Below are positions 10,045 to 43,000 of a stretch of 64,000 nt of DNA, piece after piece. Position 1 is the stretch's first letter, and every line of letters begins with the position of its first letter. The position numbers and the translations under genes are program-made. Under the pieces are notes generated by a model. It was not told where the DNA came from. It made no database searches and saw only the letters and a list, made by a program, of their open reading frames with translations. This DNA is from a virus (Duplodnaviria; Caudoviricetes): positions 64,001 to 128,000 of the IMG/VR virus record IMGVR_UViG_2839026242_000001, one strand, 5' to 3'.

Positions 10045-10330
10045 TTTTATTCCTCCCCTCAAATTTCCTTTTCTTGCTACATCTTTATAATAACACGGTT
10101 AACTAGATAATACAACATATTTTTAGTTATTATTTTCGTTCAAATTTCGTTTTATTCCAATTTCATATCTTTAAAAGTCTCATCAAATATTTCAATACAT
10201 TGAGAACATGCCCATTTGCTCATTATGTAACTATACATCACCTCCAAATTATCTTTCTCGCAATCCTCGCAACGTCCATTTTTCCATCCATCAGTCATGA
10301 AGTTATCCTCCTTGTGAAATTTTCAATTTA

Positions 10331-11181
10331 TTAATAGCATAGTCTACCAACTTCACATTCTCTAGTATCATATACTCCCTTAATGGAGCGTATTTCATAA
10401 AGTTCTTTATCGGTTGTCAATATGACAAAACTCATTTTAATTTTTGGATAGTATACCTCACCAATCTCGTTAAGCCTCTCTGGTTCATGCGTGTAAACAT
10501 AGTATTGTTTCATTCATCATTCTCCTCATTTCGCATGAAATGTTCATTTCATTAGATTCTTTCATCACACAACTCGATTTTTCCATTGTCATTAATCACA
10601 TAGTCCCACTCTGTCCCACACTCCAGACATTGTATCCATTCAGGGACAGCATACGTAACATCCGCAACAAATCGTTTCCTTTTGCTCAATTTGCCGCTTT
10701 TCAAAACCTTTTGTTCATATTCAAATTGAGGCTGCCAACGTCTAACCATTTCCTCTTTTCCACAATTAGGACATTTCAATTACATGTACCTCCTTTCAAT
10801 AAAACTAAACTTTCATCTAGACTTCAATCTGAATTTTATTCCCCTAAAGATATACTGGCCGTCATCATCCAATTCTTGAATAAAAAATTCAATTTTTTCA
10901 ACGTCCTCTTTGCTGTATTTTGGCTTTTGGTTAAAATGGTATCCTACAGTATCCGTATTTTTTGTCTGATTATATACTTCTGTGGTTTTAACTCCAGATG
11001 GCTTTAACTTAAGGAATTCAGCAATTTGTTTAATAAGTCTACCATTTGGATTATCATTCGTATGATTTAATACTCCGAGCTTAAGTGCGATTTCTTCACA
11101 AAAAAGTCCCTCTCCTTCTTCGTTAAATCCAAATTCAGTTAACAAGTCTTCGCCGTACCTCTTTACCCGTTTACTCTTCAT
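10331..11181 (-). CDS. Three small hypothetical genes (10331-10513, 10552-10779 Zn-ribbon, 10813-11181)
   Basis: ORF track, RBSs present; each bounded by the palindrome. Confidence 0.65.
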
Positions 11182-11216
11182 ATCATACTCTCCTTAAAAC
11201 CAGTCTTTCATTTGGT

Positions 11217-11972
11217 TTACTCTGTTGCCACGTCCTTTAATTTCTTATCAATAATATCTGGTTCTACATCGAGTTTTTCTAATAACCATGCTATATCATC
11301 TCTATCGCCAATGTGTCCTTCTCCCCATCCTCCACCAGCGCTAATTTCGATTGCATATACTGCGATTGGTTCAAGTTTATACCCATACCATTCAGACATC
11401 TTTTCAGCTACATCAGCAGGATAAATATATTCATCTTCTTCCCTTTGATTATGAATTCTAATAAGGGTGTTAGCCAGATCCTTCTTAAAATCTTCTTGAT
11501 TTTTCCTATGATGTCTTAATCTAATTGTGATTATTTCACTCCCAGTTCTTTCAATTAGTTCAAAACATTCATTTTTCTTTCTTTTCCAAGCTTCTTTTGC
11601 TGCTAATACTGCCTGTTCATCTCTATTGTACCTTCTGCCTAATCCAACTCTAATTAACTCTCTTGCAAATCGCTCATCTGAATCTCGCCAAGGTTGCCCT
11701 GTTGTATGCAAATACCAATGACATAATTCGTGCAAGAGAATTCTTTTAATATGTCTCAAAGTATATCTTTCATTATTCTCATTATTGAGTACAACAGTCT
11801 TTATATCACTACAATAATATCCCGCATAATTATCCCAGTCGAGTTTGCATTCAATGGTTAATGGAGATTGTCTAGTTACTAAAAGAATCGTTGGTATTTC
11901 ATTGATGCTCCAATGTTTTTTAGTCAATTGTTTTGCTTGTTTTTCAAGCCACTCTATAGTTACTTCTGGCAC
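11217..11972 (-). CDS. SprT-like zinc metalloprotease domain protein
   Basis: ILLHELCHWYLH (HExxH) motif; GTG start after AGGAGG. Confidence 0.75.
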   Translation of the reverse strand: MPEVTIEWLEKQAKQLTKKHWSINEIPTILLVTRQSPLTIECKLDWDNYAGYYCSDIKTVVLNNENNERYTLRHIKRILLHELCHWYLHTTGQPWRDSDERFARELIRVGLGRRYNRDEQAVLAAKEAWKRKKNECFELIERTGSEIITIRLRHHRKNQEDFKKDLANTLIRIHNQREEDEYIYPADVAEKMSEWYGYKLEPIAVYAIEISAGGGWGEGHIGDRDDIAWLLEKLDVEPDIIDKKLKDVATE

Positions 11973-12434
11973 TACCCAAATCCTCCTTCCTGATAAAACC
12001 AATTTACTTAAGGATTAAACAATCTAAATGAATCATCAAAAAGCCTTACCTTTAATGTTGCCGAAACCCCTTTATTCTCCCATTTTGCATCAATGATAGT
12101 TCTAATCGGATATACTTCCTGTTCTGATTCAGCAATAAATTTTATCCCCACCTTAATGTTTGGGAGCAAATAGATATAAGCCTCACCGTACTTCGTATAT
12201 CTAACAAAATCCGCAACACCATAATCAACTTGTACTTTAGAATAATACTCCCGCTGCCATTCCCTTAATTCAATAATCCACTCTTCTTGTGTTTGTATAG
12301 AACCATTTTTCTTCTCAGAATCTTGAACCTCTCATGGCTAAAGCCACGAGATTCTTGGGTAGTCCGCTCTACTGAGCAGAATTAGTACATGATGTACCAC
12401 CAAGCTATCCCCGCAGTTCCTGCGGTTACTGCGA

Positions 12435-13538
12435 TTATGCAGATAGTAGTCTTTTGCCTTCGGCAAGAATATTCAAACTTGCGTTTACATCCCTATCCCA
12501 TTCACTATAGCAAGAAGGACACTTCCATTGTCGCAAGTTAAGATCTTTAACCTCTTTGTTTTGGTATCCACAACACGAACAGAGTTGAGAGGAAGCGAAC
12601 GTTTTGCCTACGACAACGACAGTACGTCCATGCCACTTTGCCTTGTATTCAAGCATCGTTCTGAATTGATACCAGGACACTTCGCTAATTGCTTTGGCAA
12701 GTTTGTGGTTCTTCATCATGTTAGACACTTGCAAATCTTCAATCGCAATGATGTCGTGGTTTTTGACAATATGCGTTGAAATTTTTTGCAAGTAGTCTGT
12801 TCGGGCATTTGCAATGCGTTCATGGATTCTGGCAACCTTAACTCGTTGTTTATTCCAGTTTGAAGAACCTTTCACACGTCTGGAAAGGATACGTTGTTCA
12901 CGAATGAGTTTTTGTTCCATATTCCGTAGGAATTTCGGATTCTCGAACACTTCACCGTTAGATAGAATAGCGAAATCCTTTAACCCAACGTCAATACCGA
13001 CTTCTTTGTTTGTTTTTGGCAATGGTTGCACGTCTGTTTCTACTAACAACGAAACAAAGTATTTGCCAGAGGGATTGCGTCTAATCGTAGCATTTAAAAT
13101 ACGACCTTCTACTTCTTTTGATTTCGCAAAACGAACAAGTCCAAGTTTAGGGAGTTTAATCTTATCTCCTTCTATCGCAATATTTCCGTTTGTGTGTTTC
13201 GTTGTGTACGACTGAACTTTATTCCTTTTTGACTTGAAACGTGGTGCATCATTCTGCTTCTTGAAGAATCGTGAATATGCGTCTGCGAGGTTCTTTATTG
13301 ATGATTGAATAGCGATGCTATCTACTTCTTTTAGCCAAGGTAATTCTTTTTTCAGATTCGGCAGTTCGGAAGAACATACTCCGTATGATAATCCTTTACC
13401 TGTTTCTTTGTATGTTTCGTTCCACTTCGCCAAGAAGTGGTTGAACACAAATCGACTGCAACCAATCGTTTTAACAATTAATACTTCCTGCTCTTTGGTT
13501 GGATAGATACGGAATTTGTATGCTTTATTTGCTAACAT
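12435..13538 (-). CDS. tnpB: TnpB RNA-guided endonuclease
   Basis: RuvC motifs GIDVG, IEDL and DRDVNA; Zn finger CSCC...CPSC. Confidence 0.95.
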
Positions 13539-13544
13539 TGCTTT

Positions 13545-13955
13545 TCACCTCACTTTCTGATTTTGGATGTATTGTCGTATTTGCGCTTCCGTGTGTTCAC
13601 TTACGGTTGCCACAAAGTAAGAAGGATTCCAAAGATTCCCTCCCCATAGCTTCTTTTTTAGCTGGGGGAACTCTTTAAATAGCAACCTTGCCGAAACACC
13701 CTTTAACGCTTTGATGATATTTGGAATTGAATGTTGCGGATTACAATCAATTAGGAGATGAACATGGTCACAATCACTTTCAATTTCTGAAATCGTGAAA
13801 CCATTATCTGTAGCAATTTGATTGAGTATTTCCTTTAGCTTTTTATCTATATCACCAAGCAACACTTTATGGCGATATTTCACACACCATACAATATGGT
13901 ATTGGATAGAGTACACATATTCTCTACCATGTTTAACTTCTGCCATGTTATCCAC
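13545..13955 (-). CDS. tnpA: Y1 HUH transposase TnpA
   Basis: YHIVWCVKYR, DHVHLL and YIQNQ motifs. Confidence 0.95.
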   Translation of the reverse strand: MDNMAEVKHGREYVYSIQYHIVWCVKYRHKVLLGDIDKKLKEILNQIATDNGFTISEIESDCDHVHLLIDCNPQHSIPNIIKALKGVSARLLFKEFPQLKKKLWGGNLWNPSYFVATVSEHTEAQIRQYIQNQKVR

Positions 13956-14252
13956 ATCAATTATAGGATAACATATGTAAAATGTTTTTCAATTTATTAC
14001 CTCTAAATATTAGCGTTTTTGCCAATCACCAAATTAACATATGTCGGACAATTGACGTGTCAAAAGACACACCTTGTCCGAAGCCGATTCATCTCATGAC
14101 TGAAGTCACGAGTGTTCTCGGCTAATTCATAAATGGCTTTTAGCAGAGTTTTTTCGGTTGTATCATGTCCTACAATCACAGTAAAACCAGCAGCTTCAAG
14201 ATTGGCTACAATTGCATCGACATTAAACATAAGCATTACCTCTTTTCTGTAT

Positions 14253-14828
14253 TTAACTTAACTTCCAATCAAAGTAATCTCCGGCTCTGAAAAAGTTATT
14301 GTGCGTGTCTGCATTAGGGAGTCCATCTGGATGGGCTGGAGAAACAGGCATTGCCATTCCACATGAATGACACTTTATTTCTGTTGAATTTTCATAAATA
14401 TAATGATTTGCTCTATAATTACATATTACACAATGATACCTGCATCTATAACGTTTTCGCCCATCTGGATCTACCTTAATGCCTGTCCTAATCCATTCGG
14501 GTTGATCATCTGTTGTCTGATATACTTCCTTTAACTCCTCTGTATTTTGCAATCCTTCGATTAGACTTTGTTTGATTTCTTCACTCTTATGTACAATATC
14601 TTCTTTAGTTACATTTTCGATTGGATTTAGTTTCTCAAAGAAACTGCTACATGCTTTGCCTACCTGTTCAAATGTCTTAACCATCTCAAAAATATCTTTA
14701 TCTATGCTGAATAAGTTAAATACATTTTGTATGATGACAAGTTTGGATAAGTTATCTGCCTCCTTAAGTTCAAGTTCCACCTCTTTGCCTTTATCATCTT
14801 TGATATTGATTTTTACTGTTAAAGACAT
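14253..14828 (-). CDS. Hypothetical protein with a C-terminal Zn ribbon
   Basis: CVIC...CHSC. Confidence 0.6.
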   Translation of the reverse strand: MSLTVKINIKDDKGKEVELELKEADNLSKLVIIQNVFNLFSIDKDIFEMVKTFEQVGKACSSFFEKLNPIENVTKEDIVHKSEEIKQSLIEGLQNTEELKEVYQTTDDQPEWIRTGIKVDPDGRKRYRCRYHCVICNYRANHYIYENSTEIKCHSCGMAMPVSPAHPDGLPNADTHNNFFRAGDYFDWKLS

Positions 14829-14889
14829 GCTATCACCTCAATGATGATTATAAGGCAAAGGGCAGCCAAAACCAAATACAACTTACATT

Positions 14890-15129
14890 TTATCCTAACT
14901 GTAAAATCTTGAACTTAACATCTGTACCCTCTAATAATTCACCAACATTGTAATTATGTCGATAATATCCCTTTTCATCTTTGGGATAATTCCAAAAACG
15001 TGAAAAATTACTTTTATCTATTGTATGAAATAATCTACTATTACTGTCCCATGTTAGCATTACTTCATAGCGTTCCCCAACATTCCAAAATCCATATGCA
15101 TCTTCAAGGCATTCTATTATAGCCTTCAT
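14890..15129 (-). CDS. Small hypothetical protein, paralog of 16633-16872
   Basis: Both share LTWDSNSRL and RFWNYPKD-KGYYRH. Confidence 0.75.
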   Translation of the reverse strand: MKAIIECLEDAYGFWNVGERYEVMLTWDSNSRLFHTIDKSNFSRFWNYPKDEKGYYRHNYNVGELLEGTDVKFKILQLG

Positions 15130-15404
15130 TAAATTCCCTCCTTTCTAATCAAACCCTCATTTGATTAAAATTGATATTCTTCCCATTCTTCCATATCTAC
15201 TTGTTCATCACATTTTCCACAATAAATAACATCTTCATAAAATCCATCTATGTTTTCAGGTTCAATGTCATAAACTATACCATGTCTTGATCCTTCTTTT
15301 AAGTCAATTCTTTGTTTTGCTGCAACCGACACCGTAACATAGAAAAATCTAGACTCTCCACATTTTTTGCAAGTGTATTTCATACTATCTCCAACTTTCC
15401 TGAT

Positions 15405-15659
15405 TCATCCACTTACCACGTTCTTATAAGCCTTTTCGTAGCCCTTAACATCGCCTCTTTTGCTCCATTCATCATAGCAAGCATCAACTTGCCAATGATA
15501 ATCAGATCTTGGATTGTTAGCGGCATAAGCAGATAGCCAGATTTTATCTTCTGTTTCCTTAAGAAGAGATTCGTAATCCATGTTACTTAACTTTTCAAGG
15601 TATTCACTTTTTGGTCTACCGTAATTATCTTTACCTTCATAATTTCTGAGCATCAACAA
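15405..15659 (-). CDS. Small hypothetical protein, paralog of 21191-21439
   Basis: Both share KIWLSA-AANNPRSDYHWQ-DACYDEW. Confidence 0.75.
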   Translation of the reverse strand: MLMLRNYEGKDNYGRPKSEYLEKLSNMDYESLLKETEDKIWLSAYAANNPRSDYHWQVDACYDEWSKRGDVKGYEKAYKNVVSG

Positions 15660-16632
15660 ATCCTCCTTTTCCTATCAAATCCACTTTTATTGCAAACCAT
15701 CTAATGACGATGATTGGTCACAAAAATAGGCAGTTTCAATTAATGTAAATCTAATATAAACATCTGAGCCTCTTGTCCCTTGGTAAGCTCCATTAAAATC
15801 GGCATCAACAAATATTTTTCCTGTAATAGAACCTCCAATAACCTGATTCTCAAAATTCATATAATAATCTTCAGAAATAATCTCTAACTCATCTCCAAAA
15901 ACTAATTGCAATATAAATTTTAATTCTTTTAAATTACGCTTCCCTTTATAATAAACTAACTCCCCTTCATCATTTTCTTTCCATTTCTCTCTATTCCTGA
16001 AATACTGGCTTAAATTACGCTTTCTTTGTTCAAATTCTTTTGTATTCAATGAACTATAACCCCCTTTTCGTTATTTCTCTAATGCTCCCATTTTATTATA
16101 TCATCATTATTCCCTATTTTCTTTCTGAAACGCTCATTTTATCAAACTTTTCCTAACAAACTCATTTTATTCACTTAAAATACATTCATGCCATCTAGTT
16201 TCAGAATACATACCTACATTAATACATGCTTTATCAATTTCTTTAAAATTATTTTGAAACCAATTAAGAAAGGATTTAACCTCTTTTGGATTAGCCACCT
16301 TTTTTGCCGATTCTATAGCTAAGAGTTTCATTTTATAATAAGAATTTCGATGCTTAAGCTTCTTGGGATCAGTTATAATTCTTTGCTCACTATCCCTGTA
16401 TTCAAATGCAAATATAGTGTTTGCAACCCATCCATGTCTCCCTTGATCAGAATAGTGAAAAAGGTTGCTTTCAAAATGGGTATTAAAATAAGATGCAATC
16501 ATATTAGATATGGTGTGGCACTTATTATTCATATTGGGATCGAAAATTTTAATAATATTAATTAAGCCAATTTCTACTTGTCGTAAAAATTCTAAATCCT
16601 TCATATTTTCACTTCCTCATTAAATTAACATT

Positions 16633-16872
16633 TCATCCTAATTGTATAATCTTAAATAATACCCCTGCTCCCTCAATTAATTCTCCAGTCTTATAATCAT
16701 GTCGATAATAACCCTTTTTATCTTTTGGATAATTCCAAAAGCGCTCAAATTTGTCCCTATCTGTTGTATGTAATAATCTACTATTGCTGTCCCATGTTAA
16801 AATTACTTCGTACTGTTCTCCAACTTTCCAGAGTTCATATTTAGTTTCAAGACATTCAATTACCGCATTCAT
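16633..16872 (-). CDS. Small hypothetical protein, paralog of 14890-15129
   Basis: Direct comparison of the two translations. Confidence 0.75.
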   Translation of the reverse strand: MNAVIECLETKYELWKVGEQYEVILTWDSNSRLLHTTDRDKFERFWNYPKDKKGYYRHDYKTGELIEGAGVLFKIIQLG

Positions 16873-18908
16873 TCATAACCATCCTTCCTATAAAATCCCC
16901 ATTTTATCGAATTATCTCTATATACTTTTCAAATGTATCATGGTCTAATTCAAAATAAGGAAACTCTAAATCAAAATTATAAAGTTTAATTGAATAAAAA
17001 TTCTTGCCTCCACCAAGAGGGAAGACTATTGCCTCTCCTTCGTATCCAACTTCTGCTCTCAATACTGAATCCTTGCTGGTCAAATTTTTAAGCGAGAATG
17101 ACTTAATAACTCTTACTTTAACTGTTTGCTTTTCCATGATAAATCACTCCTATATTCTTATGAAATACCATTTTAAAAGGATATATATTGTAATTCATCA
17201 TCAGTAAATCCAGCATATTCTCCATCAATAAATTCAAGTAGATTTAGCTTAATTCCATCAAGTGTTACTTGACCGTATTTTTTACCCACTTGGTTAAAAT
17301 AATTTGAGTCTCGGTTAATAACTTTGAATTTCATATAACATTCTCCTTTAGCTATGTTTTTTTCGATGAAATGCCAATTTGATTAAATTTCCTTCAATAG
17401 ATTCTCTATATATTGAATTCGTTCATCAACTAGAACTGCAACATAGCCATTCATTGTTTTATACTCTTTTAAACTTTCTAACTCCTTTCTTAAATCCTCT
17501 TCAAATAGTTTAACAATTTGATTCATGCCCACATCCCCTCCATTTTCAATCAAAACGATATTTCATTTACATTCTTCTGGTGATTTACCAACGCATTCCT
17601 CTTTAAAAGGAACACGAATTTGTTCACCAATCTTAATATTATCCAAGTAGTCTTTTTCATAAACTCCATTTCTCAATACAAGGATTGGTTGTCTTTCTGT
17701 CATTTTTAGTTCTCCAACTATTTCCCACTTTATTTCTTTGTCCCTCATAAATTAACCTCCTATTTTCCATAAGCCGATATTTGATTATTATACTGGATCA
17801 TTTTCTTTATCTCGAAGAGTGTGAATTTGCTCATTCAGATCACTTTATATTTGTTTTAAATCAAAAATCACATCATTGCTTTTATTGTGAGTCAATTTCT
17901 TTAATGAGCAAACTTGCTTCGCTTAAATAATCTGCTGCCGCTCTTCTTGCCTCAACAGCCTCTGTAATATCTCGTTTCTTTTGACTTTGGTTTAACATTG
18001 GATTCACCTCGCTAAAAAATAATCAACTCGCGTTTATTAATGATCATTTATTCATCGTTAACTGCCCAAAATGTCCACAATTCAAGCATAGACATGATGC
18101 AACCACTTCATAAAACTTTTCAACTTCGTATTCACCTGTCCAACGTGAATGAATAATGCGGTTAATATTCTGAGAATCGCATTTTTCACATTTCATTACA
18201 ACACTATGATTAGACATAAATTGAACCCCATCTTCCTAATCAAATTACCTTTTCATTTGTTTTTCTTCTATCTCTTTGATTGCTTCTTCTTCGCGTTTAA
18301 TCATTTGTTTTGCAAGTTTAAGCATGCGTTTGCGGTTTTCAATACTTGTTGAATCATTACCCCATCCGATAATATTTAGTGAATTTTGATAAGCAATGAA
18401 CATTCGTGGATCGTCAGCATGATGCGCTTTCGCAACCAATACATTATTGCAATGATTACCAATACCAAATGAATTAATGTTGTTTTGTTCAACACGCCCC
18501 AGATATCTTCTATATCCATTCATTCCCTCGTCAATTGCTTCAATAAATTCTTTAGGGTACTTTTCAATTTGATCCCATCCATCGTTCAGAATAGTAATTG
18601 TAGTCATATATCCCATATTCAAACTCTCCATTTTAATCAAATCTTGTTTTCATTTATTGTTTTTAAAGCGCTGTAATTCTTCTTGTTCCTGACGAATCAA
18701 TTCCTTACTTACCTTGCCTATTTCGCTATCAGAGATGTCGCGTTCATTCATGAATGCCTCGTGTTGCAATCTCCAGTATTTTTCTCGAATTTTTCTTATC
18801 TCTGAATTTTGAATACGACTTATTTCATCTTGGTTCAATACTTCTTTAAATTGCTTTTCTTCGCTCAAATAATTCATTTTCAAAAAACCTCCTTATGAAA
18901 TCACCGTT

Positions 18909-19157
18909 TTATGCTGTTGCAGTTTTTACTTCAATAGCACAATTCTTACATATCAGCTTGCCTTTAAAATAAATTGTGTCATCTGCATTACCGCAAAACA
19001 AACAAGATGGCTGATATTTCTTCAGAATGATCTGCTCCCCATCCACATAAATCTCTAGAGCGTCTTTGATGTTGATATCAAAGGTGTCCCTTAGTTCTTT
19101 TGGTAGAACAATACGTCCCAATTCATCCACTTTTCTAACTATACCAGTTGCTTTCAT
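18909..19157 (-). CDS. abrB: AbrB-family transition-state regulator
   Basis: MKATGIVRKVDELGRIVLPKELR plus C-terminal CxxC...CxxC, very close to Bacillales AbrB. Confidence 0.92.
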   Translation of the reverse strand: MKATGIVRKVDELGRIVLPKELRDTFDINIKDALEIYVDGEQIILKKYQPSCLFCGNADDTIYFKGKLICKNCAIEVKTATA

Positions 19158-23091: not shown

Positions 23092-23316
23092 TCATTTATT
23101 TCGATGTTTCTCAATCATTCTTTGAATCTCAATCAATAATTTCGGATCATCAGGCAACTCAATTTTGTTTACTTTTCTCACTACAATTTCATCTCCGTTA
23201 ACCTCAACAGATACAGTATCTCCCTGTTCAATTCCTATTTCCCTTAGTTGCTCTGTCATGGACACCCCTAAGCTGTTTCCAATCTTGATGACTTTACGTT
23301 CCAATGTATGTATCAC
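23092..23316 (-). CDS. AbrB/MazE/SpoVT-fold DNA-binding protein
   Basis: RKVIKIGNSLGVS...GIEQGDTV; own promoter upstream. Confidence 0.75.
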   Translation of the reverse strand: MIHTLERKVIKIGNSLGVSMTEQLREIGIEQGDTVSVEVNGDEIVVRKVNKIELPDDPKLLIEIQRMIEKHRNK

Positions 23317-24585
23317 CTCTCTCTTTCTTTATGATTCCATTATAACCGTTATGACGTTATAACGCAAGTGTTTTACTTGTAGTTTTTTATTTTATTACAT
23401 TAACTACAAATGGGATGCTAACACAACATCCCATTTAATAACTTGCCCTATTTTTTAGGCTTCCTCTTGTTTATTCATGATAGCCACCATCCGATACAAT
23501 AAGTCTTTAATCGTGATCCCAACCTCGTTTTTGTGCCTCCGCTTTAATTTCCTCTAAATCTTGTTCGGTTGGTACATCCATATTTTCACTTTCGTCCTCC
23601 TCGTAATACAATCCGATTTTGTGAGGAGATTCTTGTATTCCAAATTGAAAAGCTTTCGTATATACTAATTCAACTGCATGAAACAGTGTAGATTCCAAAT
23701 ATGTTGTGGAAATAACTCCATCCGTATTTCCCCGAAACTTTCCCATAGCCTTATTCTCTTCATTGTCTTGTGTTTCCAACCAAAACAGCTTTGCTGCCCA
23801 TTTTCCATCAAGTTTCTTTACCTTAATTGTATGCATGTATGTCATAGCAAAGTCTTCCCCCTAACAAAATTTGACTTTCATTCAAATATTTGAAACGAAT
23901 CGTCTTGCCATTTCGTAAAGCAGTGCGTCTTCAGTCACACGCAAATTGTTCTCTCCAAACTTTTCTTCAAATTTCACTTGTATCTCCCTGACAATCCCTT
24001 TTGGCAGAACACCGCTGTTATACTTCCATTCGGTGATTTCTTCAAATGCTTGTTTTAATTGTTCATCAGTAAGCGACTATACTAATTCTTTCAGAAACAT
24101 ATAATATCCCTCCAGTTAAAGTCACATTTTTAAAGTGACTTTTTAAAAATTATTAATCCAAAAATGATTTCCCGGCATATAGTAGCAAAGTTGTTTTGTT
24201 ATCCCTTTATCTTTTAAGAAGCTCTCCAACATTTGTATAAATTTTTCGTTAACATGAACCCAAATTTTATTATCTACAAATGGATCATGAAAAACATTCT
24301 TTACCTGAATTTCATTTTCTTTTACCAGAACTAAGCGAATAATACTTCCTTTCTCAATTAATAGTTGATTAAATTCATCTACCATTTGTTTTGTCATAAG
24401 TTGCTCCATAATTATCATCTCCCTATGAAATCAAAGTTTTAACTAACCTAATTATACTTAGTGTCCATAGCTTATGTACTGTTTAATAAGTATTTCTCTC
24501 TCAATGCCGAAAATCCCTTCACGCTCTAGTTTTTTAATAAATTTTTTAATTTTCATTATTACTATCCGCCCTCTCAGAAATTCAA

Positions 24586-24990
24586 TTAGACTTCGATCAA
24601 TTCTTCTTTATTTTTATTTTTAACGGCAAAAAATTCACTTGGTGATACCAAACCAAAACTAATTTTCAATGCCTCATTTACTTTTTGCATAGTTTTCTCA
24701 TCCAATCTGCTAACTTTATCAGTCAATCTTAGCTTGTCAATGGTTCGTATCTGTTCCGATAAAACAACAGAGTCTCGCTCAAGTCCGAATGTTTTTGCAT
24801 CCAATTCCACATGCGTAGGCAATTTTGCTTTTGAAATCTGTGAGGTAATTGCTGCGACGATGACCGTTGGACTAAATCGATTTCCAATGTCGTTCTGAAT
24901 GACTAAAACAGGTCGCACGCCTCCTTGCTCAGAGCCAATGACAGGTGATAGATCAGCCAAATAAATTTCTCCCCTACATACTCTTCTCAA
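24586..24990 (-). CDS. mazF: MazF/NdoA (PemK-family) endoribonuclease with no adjacent antitoxin
   Basis: [30 protein letters not shown]...EQIRTIDK, near-identical to Bacillus NdoA motifs. Confidence 0.92.
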
Positions 24991-25225
24991 TAATCTTCAC
25001 TCCCTATGGTTTCGTTAATGCCACTAATATATATCGCTTTGCAATTTACTTTTATATCTTATATCTATATATTACCACGCAGACGAGATTATTACAACTA
25101 AAAATAATAAATTCAACAAAACAAAATCACGTCTAATAATTGTGCAATTCGAACATTTCTTCATTTAAATTAAAAAAGAAAAAGACTTTACATCTTTGCA
25201 AAGTCTTCAACAAGTTATTAATTGT

Positions 25226-27136: not shown

Positions 27137-27137
27137 A

Positions 27138-27213: not shown

Positions 27214-27600
27214 AAGATAGGAGCCAGTATGTACTGGTTGTTACTCTTCTTCTTGACGCAATCCAGCCTCTTCAATGCTACATTGCCATTTTTCATTGTA
27301 GAAATAATTCAACCGTTTACACCTGCAATACCAAACATGGGCAAATCGGTTTCAGGATCATTGTAGCGATCATCTCTTATAATTTGCATTGTTTTAGACG
27401 ATTCAATGATTATACGATCCTTTTTGCTGAGATTCATTGTCCTCATCTCCTATAAATATGTATTTAACTTTGCCATTCTTGATAATATTGCTCTATGCTG
27501 TCAGAAAACTGATACTTATACTCCCTTAATTCGCGCCATGTTAGTTCATTGTTTACCCATTTTTCGAGAAGTGCAATAAACCTACGAATTTCTACTTTGT

Positions 27601-28113
27601 TCATTGACAGATCACCTCCCTTTGCTTATCTAGAATAATACTGATTAATTGCTCTAAATCTGTCTCGAAAATATCTGTATTTGAAAAGTGATTACATGTA
27701 GGGAATACCGTTATTTTGTTACCTTTTACCCTGAAACTAAAGATTGTTACTCCATTCAGTTGCACGTGGTTATAATTTTTAATTACTTTATTTTTGACTA
27801 CCTTTGCGCTAGTGTCGTATTCAATTTGTTCAATTACATCATCAGTTGTCATTTCAATTTCATTTTCAATCGTAAAGGATTTACCTTCAAAATAATCTTC
27901 AATTGGCATTTCAATTTCAAACTTCTCACCTGCAATGAATCCAACCAATGTAACTTTGTCTTCCGTAACAATTTCTTCGCAATTTTCTGCATAAATGAAG
28001 TTTGTTGTTGCCCAATCGCTGAACATTTGAAAATCATCTTCTTTTACAATCTGGCTTGTTACTGGATGCATGATCATTCTCCCAATGTATTCGATAGTCG
28101 CAGCATTTTGCAT
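27601..28113 (-). CDS. Hypothetical acidic protein
   Basis: ORF track; RBS and own promoter. Confidence 0.6.
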   Translation of the reverse strand: MQNAATIEYIGRMIMHPVTSQIVKEDDFQMFSDWATTNFIYAENCEEIVTEDKVTLVGFIAGEKFEIEMPIEDYFEGKSFTIENEIEMTTDDVIEQIEYDTSAKVVKNKVIKNYNHVQLNGVTIFSFRVKGNKITVFPTCNHFSNTDIFETDLEQLISIILDKQREVICQ

Positions 28114-28274
28114 ATGTATTACCTCTCCTTCATTTATTTTATATTCTTATTGTACTATTCTACGACCTTTTAAGCAATATGTTTTTTATTAATTTTATAT
28201 TATAAAAGCCACCTTTTTCGGTGACTTTTGAATCAAACCAGACTTTGATTACCTTCTTTAGTTGTTACGTAAAA

Positions 28275-33092: not shown

Positions 33093-33113
33093 ACTTTCTC
33101 CCCTCCCTCATAC

Positions 33114-35567
33114 TTATATCAATATTTTATCTTGCTCTTCCTCCTTACAGATCATAAATGCAACCATTTTCTTAGCATCGTCTAGGCGGTCTGAAGTCTT
33201 CATGCTGTGAACCTCTTGACCATTTTTGAAGATACGGAAACAGCCGAATGATTTCGCAATCATGTATTCGCCATGAATGTATGCTCTGACTATTTCAGTA
33301 TATCGTCCTACATTGATTTCCCGTTTCTCGGTCTGGAATGTGAGGCTGTTCTCGGTCTTGTTCAATTCCTGTTCAATGAATTGCTTCACTTGTTGTTCTT
33401 TGTCTCGTTTAATTTGCCATCTAAAATTACGCATTTTCTTCTTGAACTCTTCGGATAGTTTGACAGCCTCCCCTAGATACTTGTCATATCTATCCTGCAT
33501 TTTGTTATAGCGGCTGACGTTCAATCCCCCTCTACCCGTAACCGCCCATGATGGATTTGATGCACGATGATTTAATATTTTTAGATACTGTTCATAATAA
33601 CGCTTTTTAAAAGATTGTAGATATTTTTTGATGTAGTAAGTCATTCTAGGATCATCCGTTAACGCTAGTACTTCCAATGCTTCGTTCTGGAATTGCTGGA
33701 AGGTTACTGCACAATCCTTTTTATAATCAACTTCAAATAGCGAGGAAGAATGAACCATTCTTTGCAATTCATCGGAAACAGTGTATTTCTCTAGGTCATT
33801 AATATTTATCTCAGGATAAGAATAAGTTTGTTGTTCTTGTGCTGAATCTGTTATAGTGTCGCTGTTATTGAGCATTTGACCGGATAATGACTGTGCAAAG
33901 GCAAGCGCTTTTTCTGATTGTTTAGTGAACCAAATTTTTTTAAACTTTGACCAGCGGAAACCGTTTGTTTTTAGTTGTTCGATGACTTCTTGCGATGGTT
34001 TTTCAGTGAAAGCAATCTCGATACCCTGCAATTGTTGATTGAGTGTAACTGTTATAGCGTTATCTGGTACTTGTTCCGTTTGCTGTTCTTGGTTCTCTTC
34101 ATGTTCCATTGCCTCATGCTGTTCTGGTTGCTGTTCTGCTTCCAAAGGTGTAATTATATTCAAAATATCTACCTTTCTCCAGAGCATGTGTTTTAATTCA
34201 CTGCCCGTAACTTCAATTTCATAAATACCAGCAGAACCGCCATCAGCAGGGAAGCAAGATACAACTTGATATAATTTATTATCATCAATCAATGATTCGT
34301 AGTTATCAGGCAGCGTTTGAGCGTATTTCATAGCCTGTTCTTGCAATTGCAAATGGTACTGTTTCAATAGTTCTTGTTCTTGCTTGGTAGCCTTATCATA
34401 AACAAATCTTTTCTCTAGTTCAGTGGCCTGTTCATTAGTTAACACAATAAGCCCGTTGTCATCTATAGTGCCTGTTATTTCGGCTTGCTGTTCTTGTTCT
34501 ACTTGTACTTGCGTAGGATGTTCTGTTCTCACTTCTTCAATTTTGACAGGTTCTTCACTAAGCACGTACCTAGTGAGGAAATCTCTGCCATGTTCATTTT
34601 GTTCATCTGTTCCCTGTTCGATCATGTAGCTGATGTGTCTCATTACATGCCTTTCTAAGTCATAGCCACTAGTATGTTTGTATTGCAGGTCAATTCTACC
34701 TGTATAGGTGCTTCCATCTGTAAAGGTTATTACAAATTGCGTTTTGTCATATGAACCATCAGAAGGCGCTGACCATGCCATTTCCTGAATGACTTTGTTG
34801 GCTTCTACAATTGTGGAGACTGCGACCGTCTTACAATCCCATTTATAACCCTCTAAACGTGTCACCTGCACAGATTGGATGTGATGCTTTTTCACTGGCT
34901 CTTCTTGCGTTTCTACTTGGTTGTCTGTTTGTTCTTCTTGTTCTGTAGCCTGTTCGACTGTTGACTGTTCTGTTTCTTGTTGTTGATTCATTTTTTTTCG
35001 TGTCTGCTGTACTTGTTCAACAATGACGATATATCCTTCCGCAAGCAATCTTTCTACAGTCTTAGTGGAAAAACTGATGATATTAAATGCTCCAGAGTTA
35101 CCGCTCAATATCTGTCCTTTTTTGCCGATACGCTTCCAAACATATTTATTAGCGTTTTGACCTTCACAAGCGGAAATAGTGTAAATAACTCCTATTGGGA
35201 TTGCGTAAATACTGTTAAATGTCTGAATAGGTTTTACTACTTGGATATAATCACCTTTTTGCAGTTCTTTCCGGTCTGTCTCCTGATATGTATAGACTGT
35301 TTCGTTATCTTTACTTTCTTTAAGTGTCTTGTTAACTTCAGAGATAGCGGAAGTCAATTCCTCCTTGGAAATGATTGTGCCGTATTTATCCATATGGGAG
35401 AATTTAAAGATGTTCAGGCCGTTTTTTGCTCGTGTGCCATCTTTCTTAAGTTTATAGACGAATGCGGTATCATTTTCAATCCAAATGCGGTCAATTTCAA
35501 ACACCCCATTTTCCTTTTTAACTGGACATCCTTTCATTTTTACAATTGTGTCTGTTTGATATTTCAT
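33114..35567 (-). CDS. Large multidomain (polyvalent-type) early protein
   Basis: Several globular segments joined by Q/E-rich linkers; ATG at 35567 follows AAGGAGG. Confidence 0.65.
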   Translation of the reverse strand: MKYQTDTIVKMKGCPVKKENGVFEIDRIWIENDTAFVYKLKKDGTRAKNGLNIFKFSHMDKYGTIISKEELTSAISEVNKTLKESKDNETVYTYQETDRKELQKGDYIQVVKPIQTFNSIYAIPIGVIYTISACEGQNANKYVWKRIGKKGQILSGNSGAFNIISFSTKTVERLLAEGYIVIVEQVQQTRKKMNQQQETEQSTVEQATEQEEQTDNQVETQEEPVKKHHIQSVQVTRLEGYKWDCKTVAVSTIVEANKVIQEMAWSAPSDGSYDKTQFVITFTDGSTYTGRIDLQYKHTSGYDLERHVMRHISYMIEQGTDEQNEHGRDFLTRYVLSEEPVKIEEVRTEHPTQVQVEQEQQAEITGTIDDNGLIVLTNEQATELEKRFVYDKATKQEQELLKQYHLQLQEQAMKYAQTLPDNYESLIDDNKLYQVVSCFPADGGSAGIYEIEVTGSELKHMLWRKVDILNIITPLEAEQQPEQHEAMEHEENQEQQTEQVPDNAITVTLNQQLQGIEIAFTEKPSQEVIEQLKTNGFRWSKFKKIWFTKQSEKALAFAQSLSGQMLNNSDTITDSAQEQQTYSYPEININDLEKYTVSDELQRMVHSSSLFEVDYKKDCAVTFQQFQNEALEVLALTDDPRMTYYIKKYLQSFKKRYYEQYLKILNHRASNPSWAVTGRGGLNVSRYNKMQDRYDKYLGEAVKLSEEFKKKMRNFRWQIKRDKEQQVKQFIEQELNKTENSLTFQTEKREINVGRYTEIVRAYIHGEYMIAKSFGCFRIFKNGQEVHSMKTSDRLDDAKKMVAFMICKEEEQDKILI

Positions 35568-36068
35568 ATGCGACAACCTCCTTTTATACTTACCACCTGA
35601 GAAGGTATTCACCTTCTCAACGCTCAGAGCTTAAGGCGCTGTTTATACTGGCTCTGTCCAGTTGCTTTGTTCTTTACTTTTTCAGGAAACTTGAATAGTT
35701 TTTCTTATGCTTTTTCTCTCGGCGCAACTTAACGTTTATAGCTCTTTTGGCTTTCTTAAGTGTTGGAATGAATTTTCCGTTTGTGTCTTCCACTATGTAG
35801 CCACCTGGGTAATACCAGATGAAATATCCTTTGTAGAACCAGCTATCGAGACATTTCATATTGTATTTCTCCTAATATTTTTATTTATTTTTGGGTGATT
35901 AAAAAATCTTCTCTGACCGATCTACTCCTTTGCGCTATACATTCTTTAACTATCTTTATTATATCAATTATCAAATCTCTGGTCAATATTTTTAATTTTT
36001 ATTTTATACTCATCTAAGAGTTTACAAAGAAGCACATAAACTCTTAGATGAGTTATACACTATTTAAA

Positions 36069-37079: not shown

Positions 37080-40000
37080 ATTACTCGTCTCCTTTTGGGT
37101 TTATATTCTTTCGTAAGTCCCTATACTCTTCAATTTGTTCTCTTTTCCATATAGCCCCACTTGCTAGGTATTGTATTGGCTCGGGAAAAATATATCGGGG
37201 TAGAGATTTTCGCTTACCTTCTAGAAGCTCTTTTCGATATTTTTCCGCGCGTGTTTTGTAAATGTTTACCTGCTGCTTTGACCATCCGAGTAGTTCCGCA
37301 GCTTCCTCTACCCCAACAAGTGGGGGAACTAGTTTCCCAAAATTACAAATGTTTCTGTACTATTTGGGATGTCTGATTCGTCTTCTACATCAATGTAGAA
37401 AAAGTGAGTATGTTTTGTTGGATCTTCCCCTAAGCGCATAGCCCACATCCATTCGAGCTTGATATGTACAAGCATTTTGTCTGAAATCAGATTACGATCT
37501 GGTGGAATAATAGTTACTGTCATTGGATAACTAAAAGGTTTACTATAATAAGCTGAAGCATCAAGAATTTCTTTAAAGTTTCTTTTAATAGCATCAATCA
37601 AATCCAAGCCAGTGAATTTCAAATACTTCCCTGCATCCCCTGCTACATGCCCTTGATGATTTTGATTGCGCATTTTGAACGTTTTCATAACCTATCACCC
37701 TTCGTTTTGTTTTGTTTTACTGTCTATAACAAATATACCATGAGTGTTATATGTTGTCAAACACTAAAATGAAAAAATAATAGATTTTTGATGATTAATA
37801 GTAGCAATCTCGCCCCCTTAGTTAATATCAGATCAATCGAGTAGGAGGGAGCGGCTAACTTCCGTTTGAGTTTTCCCCTAGAGTTGTGTCTATGTTAGGC
37901 GCATGGGAAACAAATAAGCCAGCATAAATGCTGGCTTATTCCCCTTGATGACTGCATGCTCGAATGAACACATTCTTTTAGCGGAAAATAAAAAGACCAG
38001 ACTAATGATTAGACTGGTCTACAAATAATCCGACTCATTCAATTTTACTCCAACTCCTCTAATCCATTTCTTCGCTGCGCTTATCGTCTCAAGTTGTGGC
38101 AATGTGTATTTTAACTTCTCTATTGCCTTTACACTCCAGTTTTCAGGCTCTGCTATCCAATCCCTTTCCCCAGCGTTCCATATGATAAAACCTTTGTATT
38201 TATACTCGCCTTCCCACTTGCTTTTGTGTATCATTTTATTTCTGTCTCCATCGTTTTCTTAATTCCATTATAAGGGATTTTCCCTAAGTTGTAAATATAG
38301 TTTACACATTTTTTTGATTAATAAAAGACTGAATGAAAAAAGACCAGTCATTAGCTGATCTTATCTAAATACACAATCAAGACTTGTATCGTTTCCATGA
38401 CCTAGCTTTATTGCATCTTTCAACAGGTTATATACCGTTAATTCAGCAGTGATATCATCTGAAGTCGCCTCAAATGCAGCGTGATTAAAAGATCTTCTAT
38501 TATCTCCTACATATTTTTGTTCCATATAAAACTTCGCTTGCTGAATTGTTCTTTTCCCATTTAACACAGATGCAATAATTTCATTTACTCCGTTTTCCCA
38601 GTATTTCTTTTTCATTTGAAATGCCTCCTATGTATTTCCTTGTTGATTATATTATAACTGACATCATGACATATTACAACACCTATTTTATATATTTTTG
38701 TTTTTAAAAATCAAAAGAAAAAGCCAGCTTTTAACTGGTAAATATTACTCTTGATTATATTTTAGATATTCCAATTCTTCCTCGTATTCTCTTGCTTCCT
38801 GATCTGGTTCGCATCCTTCGGCTTCGATCACTACAGTTTCTTTATCTTTTTCGTGTTTCAATTGGCTAATTTTCAAGCCCAGTTCGTACTCTCCAGTTAA
38901 AAATGCCTTATGTATTATAATATCTAATAGCTGTTCAAGAGTTAAGCCTTGGGCGACTTCCTTCATTTGTGATTCACTTAAAGTAAGTTTCAATTCCATT
39001 TTTACCGCCTCCAAATATGTATTTCCTTCTTGATTACAATTATAAGGGGTTCGCAAAATGATGTCAATGTTTTTATTTTATATTTTTATTTAAAAAACTA
39101 AAACCAGCCTAGTTTGCTGGTTTTAGTTGATTGAGTTTTTCTACAAGATCATCAATAGCTTTTTTCGCATCCTCTTCTGTGTCAAATGTCCTTCTAAGAC
39201 CTTGCAGTTCGTCCCTTTCTAAGTAAGTTCGAATCAATTTGCGTTCTTCTTTATTCTCAGGATAATCACCAAAAACATCAATCCAATAAACCTCTTCAGA
39301 CAGTCCTTTTGTTATATCAAACAGAGTTTTATTATACTTTTTCAATGTATATTCCTCCTATGTATTATCTTTTAAAGATATTATACCAACTGCCTACAAT
39401 GAAGTCAATATATTTTTATTATTTTTATTTTGTATTTTTCCGATGAAGACCGCTTTTATCTGCTCTTTAGATAACGCCTAATTCTTTATACATGCCCCTA
39501 TAAACGTCCCAGCCTTTTTGGATTGATCCAATTTGACCAACTTTTAATACATGTCCTTTTGTCTTGCTTCTGTAAAGTCTAACGGTTACGGTATCATTGG
39601 TTTTAGCGTATACCGTTCCTTTATTTAAGACAGTGCCGAAAATGCTGTCTGTTTGGTACATTACTTTATCGCCAACTTGTAAAGGTTCAATTTGCGATTT
39701 ATCAAGTATATTTTTAATTAAATCGACATCTAAACTATATTTATTAGCGTATTCAATGGCTTTTTCGTATGGGATATTAGGCAAGCACCAATTTTCCCAA
39801 TGTCCACGAAATTCGACGAATTTATTTAGATTTATATCATATACTGGAACATTGTTTTGCTTCATGTCTGTATTGATTTCCTGTCTAATTTGCTTGTATT
39901 CCTCATCAGTTTTATTATATACGTTGATCCGCGCAATTTTATTGTACATATGTATTACCTCCATTTATTCTTAATCGAATTAAAAATTCTTTTATTGGGG

Positions 40001-43000
40001 AAAAGAAAAGCCACAATTTTATGAGTGGCTCATTCAAACATATGTGCATATTCTTTATTTGTCCATTCCTTGGCCTCTTTTGCAGTGTCAAATTGAGCAA
40101 CTACTTTTCTCTCATATCTTTGGTCAAAAGGTTTATTATCGTCTTTTGTTGATTTTATTACAAGGTAAGCGTCAATTGTTTTTGAGGGTTCAATCCACAT
40201 TGTAATATTTTCATTTACTGTTTCCCGATAGAAGGCATACTTTTTAACTTTGCTTACATTCCCTTTAAATTGTGAGCTACTTTGCATTTTATTCCATCCA
40301 TATTTATCTGCCATTTTAACCGCCTCCTAAGTATTTCCCTATGATTCTATTATAAAGGATAAATGCTATATATGTCAAGCTTTTTATTATTTTTATTTTT
40401 ATTACATCCAATAAAAACCGATTTGATGAGAAAAAGGGAAGAGACTGCATAAAGCAGTCTCTTACAATTCGTCAAGTTGTCTGTAAAGCTCTTCAAGCCC
40501 TTTTTCCATGTTTGCCCTAATAACTTGATCTTGTGTTTCCCAGATGGCAGATTTCAAGTCTTTAATTTGTTTTATGATTTGAGATTTTTTGTTAATCATT
40601 TTGATTTCCTCCATTTCAATTATATGTTTTATGATTAAGCTTTGTATTTCTTCAGGAATGTTTTACATTTCTTGAGTGTTGCTTTTCCTTCATCTTCATC
40701 ATCATTGTAGCTGCTGCCGCCTGATTGGATCATGTCTATTATGTATTTTGCCTCTTCGATTGCTTCAGATAGTGTAAAGTTTTCGTTGCCCACTTCAATG
40801 AATCGACTTTCGATTTCATATGGTACATGCTTTTTCCATGTGTCAGTGTTTGTTTTTGCCATTTATCATTTCCCCCTTTAATTTATCTTTAATTATATTA
40901 AACCATGCCATTTTATAGTTGTCAACTATTTTTATTATTTTTATTTTTAATACATCCAATAAAAACCGATTTCATGTCAAAAAGAAAAAGAGCAGTTTTT
41001 TCGCTGCTCTTTCCAGTTCCTTATTTACTTTCCACAATATAAACCCTATTCCCTTTATCCTCCGTCTTTTCAATCGTAGAAAGCTGGATACCGTTACTGT
41101 AGGCGATAAGAACATCTGCATTCTGGTCACATTTCGAGAGTTGCTCAATCAATTCTGCAACTGTCATTTTAAATTCCTCCCTATGTTTTCATATCTTGTT
41201 TATTCGCTACTTATTACTTATTTCCTCTTGTTTACATTATATACGATGTCTTTTCGTGTACGTAAGTTATTTATTATTTTTATTTTGTATTTTTCCGACG
41301 CTTTTATCTGGTTAGAATTAATACCTTTATGTCTGTAAATTAATTCTCTGTTGGGTGTCATTATTGTGTATCCCAATTTAACCATTTGTTTTTTATTACA
41401 TTGCTCAATAAAACTTTGTACATCCTCTATATCATGCTCACGTATTGAAACGGCACCGTTTGCTAAATCTACCGTAAGAATTACTTTCATCATTATCACT
41501 CCATTTATTTTAGTTTTATAAATCGAAATCAACCGCTTTTATCTGGTTTCCTTAAATCTATAACTTGTGTATTCTCCAAACTGTTTTATTCTTACACATT
41601 CATTTACTGTACCATTTGCTCTAAAAATATCGCCAACATTCCATTTTGTGCTACTAGGCATTACAACCTTTTTACCTTTAATAAAAACAGTCATTGCAGC
41701 ATTCATTTTACATACCTCCATTTATTTTATAAAAAACCGCCTTTAATTGTTTAGTGTATTAGTTGATAATTCCAACTTCAAAGCAAGATCAATAATTTTA
41801 TTTTTGATTTCAGTATGGAAGTAATACTTTTGAAACAATCTTTCCATATCTGATTTATTGTCGCTATAATTTGGATCACGTTTTACTACTTCATGCGCCC
41901 AATTGATTAATTTTTGTTCGGCCTCAATCATATTAGATAATGCTGAAGTATAGCCAAGACTATTTTCAATTTCTCGTAATTTCTCCCCATATTCTTTGCG
42001 ACTGGCACAAGTTTCTTTTAACTTTCTTTCTGCTACAATTCGTTTTACTTCATTGTCGATAGCGTCAAATTGTATTTTTGCTTGGATATAGTTGAATTGT
42101 TCTTGACTGTACTTCATATGTATTCCTCCTCATTATTTTAGATTAATGTCCAATCAACCTTTGATTTCCATTCAATTTCCAATGCTTTAGCAATCATATT
42201 AGCAAATGATTCTGCTTGCTGTTTATTGATGGCTGTAAGTGTTGTATAGATTCCTTTTGGATGTTCCTTGTTATCTTTAAAGTGTACTTGAAATTCTTTA
42301 AACATTTTATTCCTCCTTTCTTTGAATAAAATAGTCATTTGATGGGAAGAGTGATTACCCTTCCCAATCTATTTCTGTCGCATCTTCTAAAGAGCTTATA
42401 AGTCCATTTAAGCATAGACATTCATGATGGATTGAATCTTATAAGCTGCCTCCTTTGCTTCTTCAAGCGTTTTAAAACGTTTTGGGGCTCCATATTCAGA
42501 CAATGTAATTTCCCGTACTTCTTTAGCGTCTTCATTGTCCAACATTGCGATGAATACAGGGTCAACCAGAAGTTCATTATTTTTTAAAACTTTTACACTT
42601 CCGAAATGATGGATTGTAATGTTAGCGTTGATTTTCTTTTCGCCAACTTTCCGGAAATCACCATCGTCATCTGTGCAGTATGTAACCTGCTCAATGATTG
42701 CTTTGCAGCACTTACACACTTTAAATTGCTCCACAATGTCATAAGAAGATCCGAAATCTACATGGTCAAATGTAGTTGTATGTTTGTGAGGACACGAGCT
42801 GAACGTACTATGAACGTTTAGAATATCACCCACAAACCATTTATTCAGACTGATAAACATGGCAGGAAGTTCATACCAACCCAAAACTTGATAATCATCG
42901 CCAGAAAACAATTGAATGTCTGTAGTAGAGAAAGTTTCAACTTCCTCTGAAACATGACAGAAATGAGCAATCATTTGATCTCCTTCGACAGAAAGAGCAA

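Follow-up and report, generated by a model that had tools for sequence, protein, structure and literature searches.

A solitary mazF gene and an excess of UACAUA sites in the messages of an SPbeta-like temperate phage

In the phages phi3T and SPbeta, host MazF decides between lysis and lysogeny, through a circuit that comprises the host MazEF pair, AimX, YosL, phi3T_93 and the sro operon (PMC10769878; bioRxiv 10.1101/2023.04.27.537455). The transcripts of both phages are enriched in UACAU (bioRxiv 10.1101/2023.04.27.537455), the lysogeny operon of phi3T is, as published, free of MazF sites, and YosL and AimX bind MazF via a MazE-like helix, with AimX contacts at M14, Y18, E20 and M21 (PMC10769878). 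The strict site of B. subtilis MazF is U^ACAUA (bioRxiv 10.64898/2026.08.06.743204; PMC11780869). Known already, therefore, are that MazF governs both phages, that their messages are rich in its sites, that the lysogeny operon is spared, and that YosL and AimX act as inhibitors. Here a 64,000-nucleotide stretch of viral DNA (from IMG/VR record IMGVR_UViG_2839026242_000001; hereafter the window) was analysed, which represents bases 64001-128000 of contig C5 within a 4.6-Mb genome and carries a mazF gene of its own together with an excess of UACAUA in its messages.

The work on phi3T and SPbeta leaves two questions, namely why the phage messages carry so many cut sites and to what extent the phages depend on the host enzyme. 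A relative that encodes MazF, with a distant YosL-type inhibitor, sites concentrated at ribosome-binding sites (RBSs) and a site-free repressor operon, gives a direct handle on both. With the toxin gene on the phage, the phage and host copies can be deleted separately, and the sites can be mutated silently. We give an even chance to the reading that this phage uses the MazF/UACAUA logic of phi3T and SPbeta with the nuclease encoded by the phage itself. In the literature searched, no report was found of a mazF gene in an SPbeta-like phage or of a bias of the strict hexamer towards translation-initiation regions (TIRs); per-gene site tables beyond that literature may note TIR placement or the site-free operon.

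The phage, its mazF gene and candidate partners

Contig C5 has a total of 136,134 bp and a G+C content of 31-37% along its length (34% overall), against 46-55% in the large host contigs, all except one of which exceed 51% (52% for the host); therefore C5 is phage DNA that was assembled separately. The two ends of C5 share no overlap in the range of 20-300 bases. Genes were called with a purpose-written simple caller, and the identical caller was used for all phages compared; 213 of the 245 genes called on C5 are on the minus strand. The phage is of the SPbeta kind; a MrpR/YopR-type repressor and a DndB-fold YopQ-like protein are present, both with homologues in the phi3T/SPbeta circuit, and the window is the control and early-gene arm of this 136-kb SPbeta-like temperate phage. 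No DNA nearly identical to 22700-26000 was found in the phage collection.

An intact MazF without an adjacent mazE had been claimed by the original prediction, and this was borne out. The translation of the gene (Table 1) is free of stops over 134 aa and matches Pfam PemK_toxin with E 4e-38 (score 130.4 bits, curated cut-off 23.1 bits; residues 6-112 align with positions 2-109 of the 109-position profile) as well as PHROG 1936, MazF-like growth inhibitor (E 1.4e-31). The nearest solved structures are Bacillus MazFs (PDB 4HKE, 7BXY and 4MDX; E 1e-52 to 3e-53). Among open reading frames (ORFs) of at least 20 aa in 23900-25300, judged by eye, none resembles MazE, and the proteins neighbouring phage MazF gave no match to antitoxin families. 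The type II mazEF layout, with the antitoxin gene directly upstream and co-transcribed, is therefore absent from phage mazF, while the host MazF gene on contig C27 is preceded directly by a ribbon-helix-helix (RHH) mazE.

Phage MazF is identical to host MazF at 87 of 116 residues (75%), and to 31 chromosomal NdoA proteins at 73-82% in a 32-sequence alignment, whose 65 invariant columns are all kept by the phage protein. In MazF-Bs, roles in RNA binding and catalysis are assigned to Gly18, Glu20, Arg25, Pro26 and Thr48 (PMC8634880). Their counterparts in the phage protein are G19, E21, R26, P27 and T49; all five lie in invariant columns and all are kept. Because enzymes of known specificity are 75-80% identical to it, phage MazF probably cuts U^ACAUA like its Bacillus relatives. 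Compared with chromosomal Bacillus mazEF (ndoAI-ndoA / ydcDE; 4MDX, 4ME7), which belongs to the same fold family, phage mazF lacks the upstream RHH antitoxin gene and the translational coupling, and has a promoter-like site of its own and a C-terminal extension of 18 aa. This extension is absent from the other proteins among the best 120 of 7989 relatives (E <= 1e-20), and apart from phage MazF itself nothing among these 120 is more than 83% identical to it. A fold predicted from the 32-sequence alignment was uninformative, for the C-terminal tail as well (mean pLDDT, the predicted local distance difference test score, 43.9).

Upstream of phage mazF lie about 235 nt of non-coding DNA (no ORF of note) with a hairpin and a promoter-like site, and given the hairpin and T-run mazF is probably a transcription unit of its own. 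Its leader contains no UACAU. The 32-aa ORF directly behind mazF gave no family match and bears a weak likeness to the ORF behind the mazF gene of phage Perkons (6 of 8 residues, E 0.15 in a tiny search). A LexA box upstream of mazF (CGAACATTTCTTCA, 25150-25163, 2 mismatches) was considered and rejected: the window holds 13 such matches against 10.3 expected, and the box is clear of the promoter-like site.

A second solitary MazF is found in Psychrobacillus phage Perkons (MT325768), which is likewise temperate, with a genome of 136.8 kb. Its ORF37 lies, like the gene described here, amid small early genes, and is 63% identical to phage MazF without the C-terminal tail; the main text of the Perkons paper does not mention MazF. 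In the Perkons mazF unit (15150-15830) the leader carries UACAUA twice, at 15166 and 15217, and the 56-aa ORF that follows the gene carries it once (15722), whereas here the leader has none and the ORF behind has one. Both phages show the UACAUA excess in TIRs.

When phi3T AimX and YosL were searched by tblastn, they matched one place on the contig, C5 23860-23973, outside the window and within a 109-aa ORF (P0130). Host MazE, used in the same way on the phage contigs, gave one match at E <= 1e-3, 65 kb from mazF. In an alignment of P0130 with phi3T AimX, phi3T YosL, host MazE and a Brevibacillus homologue, residues M73, G76, Y77, E79, M80, I83, N84, E95, E97 and A98 are invariant. The equivalents of the four AimX contacts are M73, Y77, E79 and M80, and 4/4 are kept, so that a YosL-type protein with a MazE-like helix appears to be shared with the phi3T/SPbeta circuit. 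The only database homologue of P0130 is a Brevibacillus brevis protein (62% identity). As judged from its sequence, then, phage MazF has a candidate partner on the same contig, a putative YosL-type MazE mimic, and P0130 may bind it. Host MazE, encoded on C27, is a further possible neutraliser. In Perkons no YosL/AimX-like tblastn match was obtained at E < 0.5, and the best match to the C5 YosL-like protein had E 0.52 over 18 aa. Immediately before P0130 lies a gene (C5 24414-24614) with GGAGGAAUACAUAAUG at its start.

The phage differs from phi3T and SPbeta in carrying the nuclease gene, and in the parts of the circuit that were not found. By tblastn no homologue of phi3T_93, the MazE-sequestering protein, was detected at E < 1 (best E 1.6), although a protein unrelated in sequence could serve, and there is no separate AimX gene, the sole AimX-like match falling within the YosL-like gene.

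It had also been proposed that the small AbrB/SpoVT-fold protein, placed at 23092-23316 in the original prediction, is the missing MazE. This is unlikely. The protein matches TIGR02609 doc_partner, an antidote family that partners Doc, below the cut-off (E 6.9e-9). Its 7 homologues are from Brevibacillus or unnamed sources, and at the single homologue locus inspected, which is prophage-like, no MazF-like ORF was seen by eye near the homologue.

UACAUA in coding sequences, initiation regions and the lysogeny operon

The coding test was performed on eight genomes by shuffling synonymous codons across each genome, with proteins and codon usage kept. The contig was compared with seven public phages, Perkons, phi3T, SPbeta, SPO1, T4, Lactococcus phage 949 and P-SSM2, of which the last four were controls. 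Sense coding sequences (CDS) of the contig contain 96 UACAUA sites against a shuffle mean of 46.8 (standard deviation, sd, 5.2). Similar excesses were obtained with phi3T (101 against 42.6, sd 5.0), SPbeta (104 against 46.3, sd 5.7) and Perkons (91 against 54.8, sd 5.6), whereas the controls gave 4 against 34.9 (sd 5.6) for SPO1, 19 against 31.1 for T4, 22 against 31.0 for Lactococcus phage 949 and 35 against 54.2 for P-SSM2. The reverse complement TATGTA was close to expectation in 6 of the 8 genomes. On the contig as a whole the minus (transcribed) strand holds 137 copies of the hexamer (Markov expectation 95.8) and the plus strand 75. The transcript-wide excess of MazF sites is thus a property shared with phi3T and SPbeta.

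SPO1 (NC_011421), a virulent B. subtilis phage, is nine-fold depleted of UACAUA in sense CDS, with the reverse complement slightly high (68 against 52.4); a literature search on SPO1 and MazF found no paper on this depletion. The contrast suggests that UACAUA is selected in opposite directions in temperate and virulent Bacillus phages.

The TIR was taken as positions -25 to +5 around the start, with the expectation derived from position-wise column shuffles among genes (2000 shuffles). The early-gene region, window positions 10000-42400 with 77 genes, was selected post hoc, after inspection. The TIRs of these 77 genes contain 11 TACAT sites in 9 genes against 2.3 expected, and none of the 2000 shuffles reached 11; over the whole contig the count is 18 against 9.0 (P 0.004). 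ATACAT (10 against 0.78) and ATACATA (7 against 0.26) are the top words in the early TIRs other than those of the Shine-Dalgarno sequence (SD). What is enriched is UACAUA, the strict site of Bacillus MazF, which occurs 7 times in the early TIRs against 0.8 expected and 13 times in the TIRs of the whole 136-kb contig against 2.5. Per kb, UACAUA is found at 1.71 in TIRs, 1.36 in other intergenic RNA and 0.89 in coding sequence over the whole contig; the corresponding densities in the early region are 2.93, 0.37 and 0.61.

The other SPbeta-like phages show the same excess in TIRs: Perkons 13 against 2.1, phi3T 7 against 1.8 and SPbeta 5 against 1.75, which with this contig gives 38 against 8.1 when pooled. 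In the controls the counts are 1 against 1.8 (SPO1), 0 against 3.0 (T4), 1 against 1.6 (Lactococcus phage 949) and 4 against 3.5 (P-SSM2). TACAT before ATG occurs in common expression vectors, and the word might be a generic good spacer; with 6 TIR hexamers in the four control phages against 9.95 expected, this idea was rejected as a general rule. Since the controls show no TIR excess, a general liking of RBSs for UACAUA is not the cause. When the TIR expectation was raised in line with the general intergenic excess, a surplus persisted in two phages, this one (13 against 5.35; P 0.0036) and Perkons (P 0.0087), but did not persist in phi3T (P 0.18). The excess is 5.2-fold on this contig and 6.3-fold in Perkons, the MazF owners, and 3.9-fold in phi3T and 2.9-fold in SPbeta, the non-owners; with two phages against two, a stronger TIR bias in MazF-owning phages is only a lead. 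The phage also differs from phi3T and SPbeta in the G+C distance to its host, given above.

ATGTA on the plus strand is UACAU in minus-strand RNA, and the original prediction had listed 12 such sites at or next to SD sequences or start codons. All 12 are present, as are the two sequence strings quoted with them, which are correct. For ten of them, spread over 8 genes, a called start follows within 25 nt (10784, 23304, 23308, 28114, 38630, 39017, 39345, 39360, 39950 and 42118); the remaining two fell away, 27458 preceding a doubtful ORF and 10225 being at no start. A further site beyond this list was located at 30698.

The sites fall into two classes. In class 1 they occupy the spacer between SD and start, as GGAGG(U)AAUACAUAUG at 28113, 39949 and 42117, as UACAUACAUUG at the AbrB-like gene and as AUAUACAUUG at 39345; four additional class 1 sites are found elsewhere on the contig. 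Overlap with a stop codon as the origin of CATAGGAGG was rejected, the upstream stops being more than 100 nt off. Class 2 sites lie just 5' of the SD (38629, 39016 and 39359). The leaders that hold them are short, and the units, of one gene each, have strong TTGACA/TATAAT promoters with A-rich elements upstream. By alignment these three leaders, and a fourth with UACUUA, are copies of one module. The promoters of the early units were called by a stricter purpose-made scan; a general promoter scan of 9000-24000 was uninformative (54 sites against 59.1 expected). Between 37686 and 40420 single-gene units follow one another; every unit comprises an upstream element rich in A, a SigA promoter close to consensus, a short leader, a small ORF without known family and a hairpin terminator.

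Like the phi3T/SPbeta circuit, the phage has a lysogeny operon free of the site. Over 4192 nt, from the small ORF that follows the helix-turn-helix (HTH) gene as far as the MrpR stop, no site occurs (P 0.015 at the contig rate), and these 4192 nt are part of a longer site-free stretch (Table 1). As a check of the method, the transcribed strand of phi3T was treated alike; its largest site-free gap, 70677-74801, coincides exactly with phi3T_92-97, so that the sro operon of that phage is recovered. Perkons is site-free at 25660-29261, covering ORF64-66, and its integrase / DndB-like / integrase trio carries no site. Downstream of the repressor genes, at 2542-3568, AgrB (PF04647, E 1e-20) is encoded together with a LytTR protein (PF04397, E 5e-12), inside or at the edge of the UACAUA-free stretch.

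Proposed mechanism and competing explanations

How the phage would use these elements can be outlined as follows. Free MazF, from the phage, the host or both, would cut the lytic messages at UACAUA, which is densest at their 5' ends, while the site-free repressor operon would stay expressed, and lysogeny would be favoured. As lysis proceeds, the YosL-like protein or host MazE, or the two together, would restrain phage MazF. At the sites between SD and AUG (UACAUAUG at 28113, 39949 and 42117; UACAUACAUUG at 23304-23312) a cut would sever the RBS from the start codon. At the leader sites 38629, 39016 and 39359 it would exchange the protected 5' triphosphate for a 5'-OH a few bases before the SD, and the altered 5' end may change message stability. 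In our view the TIR sites are no separate device; they mark where a sensitisation that extends over whole transcripts is densest.

A bolder version of this mechanism is unlikely. It holds that the phage has acquired the toxin arm of host MazEF and operates a complete RNA switch, whose parts are phage MazF, a phage-encoded YosL-type inhibitor and the UACAUA sites in the phage messages, and in which the UACAU-AUG sites are a distinct device: a cut followed by 2-nt trimming would leave messages that start at or next to the AUG, the genes concerned being turned off or translated leaderless while the repressor operon continues. The 5'-OH ends of MazF (EndoA) products are trimmed by 2 nt (PMC11780869). 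The UACAU-AUG sites recall another model through the placement of a MazF site just 5' of the start codon. In that model, which is contested, E. coli MazF cuts upstream of AUG and generates leaderless mRNAs. The present case differs in that the site has six bases and is not ACA, that the message is the phage's and not the host's, and that altered ribosomes would form no part of the basis of the proposal.

A number of results weigh against messages that are sensitised to MazF at their initiation regions. The expected enrichment of TACAT by strand and position was seen on the sense strand only and in the early TIRs, but the TIRs in the rest of the contig contain 7 UACAU against 6.7 expected, which is not significant. 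The claim that early mRNAs are built for silencing at the RBS is likewise upheld only in part. It agrees with the excess of UACAUA in the early TIRs, but UACAUA occurs in just 19 of the 77 early genes (TIR and coding together) and UACAU in 30, coding sequence itself holds twice the expected number, and 3 of the 7 early TIR sites are copies of the one module (counted once, they leave 5 against 0.8 expected, Poisson P 0.0014). About 25 small minus-strand genes in 16767-23307 (6.5 kb) carry no sense UACAUA, which is the second largest gap on the contig in a phage that averages one site per kb. Nor are the sites peculiar to TIRs: over the whole contig their density there comes close to that in other intergenic RNA, and in phi3T it is lower (1.20 against 1.62 per kb). 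With three SPbeta-like phages pooled, the last 10 nt before the start hold 15 sites and the other upstream bins 8 to 18, so that the last bin is no higher; the placing of the sites at -6/-5 and from -17 to -30 follows simply from the SD, which occupies the stretch in between. Class 2 sites are 5' of the SD, and a cut there would therefore leave SD and start codon intact. In 12 of 13 TIR sites the base before the hexamer is A, compared with 50 of 97 CDS sites (P 0.003), which hints at a longer word than MazF needs. Phage MazF deviates from its relatives at near-invariant columns, e.g. K5C, Q53S, L78S and Q87L, and its specificity or partner could differ. Finally, tblastn with phi3T AimR gave no match at E 1e-3, the 451-aa HTH protein (8707-10062) included, in which an N-terminal HTH_3 domain is all that was recognised. 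AimR families are divergent, and an arbitrium receptor may nevertheless be encoded.

Another explanation would be that the UACAUA excess is a word bias of the SPbeta lineage without a link to MazF, due to codon-pair or mutational bias or to shared TIR and promoter cassettes. The TIR copies would then be by-products, and MazF would be an accessory gene, serving for example in phage exclusion or prophage stabilisation together with the YosL-like gene. The extension of the excess to coding and all non-coding RNA, beyond the TIRs, the small share of early genes that carry a site and the duplicated modules all speak for such a bias, as does the fact that the four SPbeta-like phages are kin and hence non-independent observations. 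However, the excess is strand-specific and survives synonymous-codon shuffling, which that of the reverse complement does not. In the published model one operon has to survive MazF, and that operon lacks the site in each of the three phages looked at, namely phi3T, the present phage and Perkons; SPO1, a virulent phage of a MazF-bearing host, is strongly depleted of the word. Lineage bias is unlikely.

We regard it as quite unlikely that the sites serve the host enzyme only, with phage MazF acting either as a decoy that titrates host MazE and so frees host MazF, or as a nuclease of altered specificity. The deviant residues and the unique tail of the phage protein would suit this explanation, the MazE-sequestering role is vacant as far as tblastn for phi3T_93 goes, and phi3T and SPbeta show the site pattern without a MazF of their own. 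On the other hand, phage MazF keeps every invariant column, those for RNA binding and catalysis included, and the two MazF owners have the strongest TIR excess, though this is two phages against two.

That AAUACAUA is instead a protein-binding word, either a DNA operator at the early promoters (as AATACATA DNA, an alternative raised in the original prediction) or an RNA site bound by a translational repressor comparable to T4 RegA, is very improbable: the A before TIR hexamers and the fixed place between -10 and SD in three promoters agree with it, but the word is non-palindromic, is nearly twice as frequent on the transcribed strand, has 97 sense copies within genes, and is preceded by a variable base in Perkons and phi3T; the repressor of SPbeta-like phages is reported to read a 24-bp operator.

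Feature coordinates and neighbouring genes

Table 1. Features of the mazF locus, the UACAU/UACAUA sites and the lysogeny operon (window coordinates unless C5 is stated)
Feature	Position	Strand	Details
Sense UACAUA-free stretch, lysogeny (sro-like) operon	2670..8564	-	5.9 kb; from just behind the HTH gene through YopQ and MrpR
MrpR/YopR/SroF-type master repressor	4337..5365	-	PF22822 E 2.9e-28, PF22823 E 9.3e-18; phi3T_97 tblastn E 9e-29
YopQ-like (DndB-fold) protein	5369..6679	-	PF14072 E 2.6e-9; phi3T_96 tblastn E 6e-54
UACAUA	10224..10229	-	not at any called start
UACAU (UACAUG, non-strict)	10784..10788	-	between SD and TTG start of gene 10552-10779
AbrB/SpoVT-fold small protein	23092..23304	-	PF04014 E 3.5e-6; UACAUACAUUG running into TTG start
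UACAUA	23307..23312	-	between SD and start of AbrB-like gene; second copy, UACAU only, at 23304-23308
32-aa ORF directly behind mazF	24458..24556	-	candidate gene; holds the sole UACAUA of the mazF unit (24473-24478)
Phage mazF (ndoA-type)	24586..24990	-	134 aa, TTG start, stop-free translation, PF02452
Putative SigA-type promoter of mazF	25069..25097	-	TTGTAA, 17-nt spacer with TG, TAATAT; read by eye
Hairpin and T-run behind upstream 223-aa gene	25172..25207	-	read by eye
UACAUA	27457..27462	-	before doubtful 45-aa ORF 27309-27446; excluded from TIR count
UACAUA	28113..28118	-	final A is the A of AUG, gene 27601-28113 (GAGGUAAUACAUAUG)
Promoter-leader module 1	38616..38679	-	-35, -10, short leader with AAAUACAUA just 5' of GGAGG; UACAUA 38629-38634
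Promoter-leader module 2	39000..39067	-	12/12 match to TTGACA-17-TATAAT; UACAUA 39016-39021
Promoter-leader module 3	39346..39408	-	UACAUA 39359-39364; also UACAU only, 39345-39349, running into TTG start
UACAUA	39949..39954	-	ends in AUG of gene 39467-39949 (GGAGGUAAUACAUAUG)
Promoter-leader module 4	40315..40378	-	homologous to modules 1-3; UACUUA replaces UACAUA
UACAUA	42117..42122	-	ends in AUG of gene 41743-42117 (GGAGGAAUACAUAUG)
YosL-type protein P0130	C5 23833-24162		outside window, 65 kb from mazF; 109 aa; MazE-like helix by alignment

Contig C51 (31.6 kb, 34.6% G+C) may be a further part of the same phage or a second phage. No relatives of three of the TIR-site genes were found among viral contigs, and the 160-aa gene, looked for across 60 host-family genomes, is present solely in the window's own genome. 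Within the early-gene array, 12435-13538 encodes a transposase (PHROG 506, E 4.9e-142). An HNH/homing-endonuclease-like gene (PHROG 559, E 9.5e-48) lies directly behind that of an 832-aa protein (window 31983-35612); the phage collection contains a single clear relative of the latter, from Geobacillus virus E3 (39% identical across 37% of the 832-aa protein).

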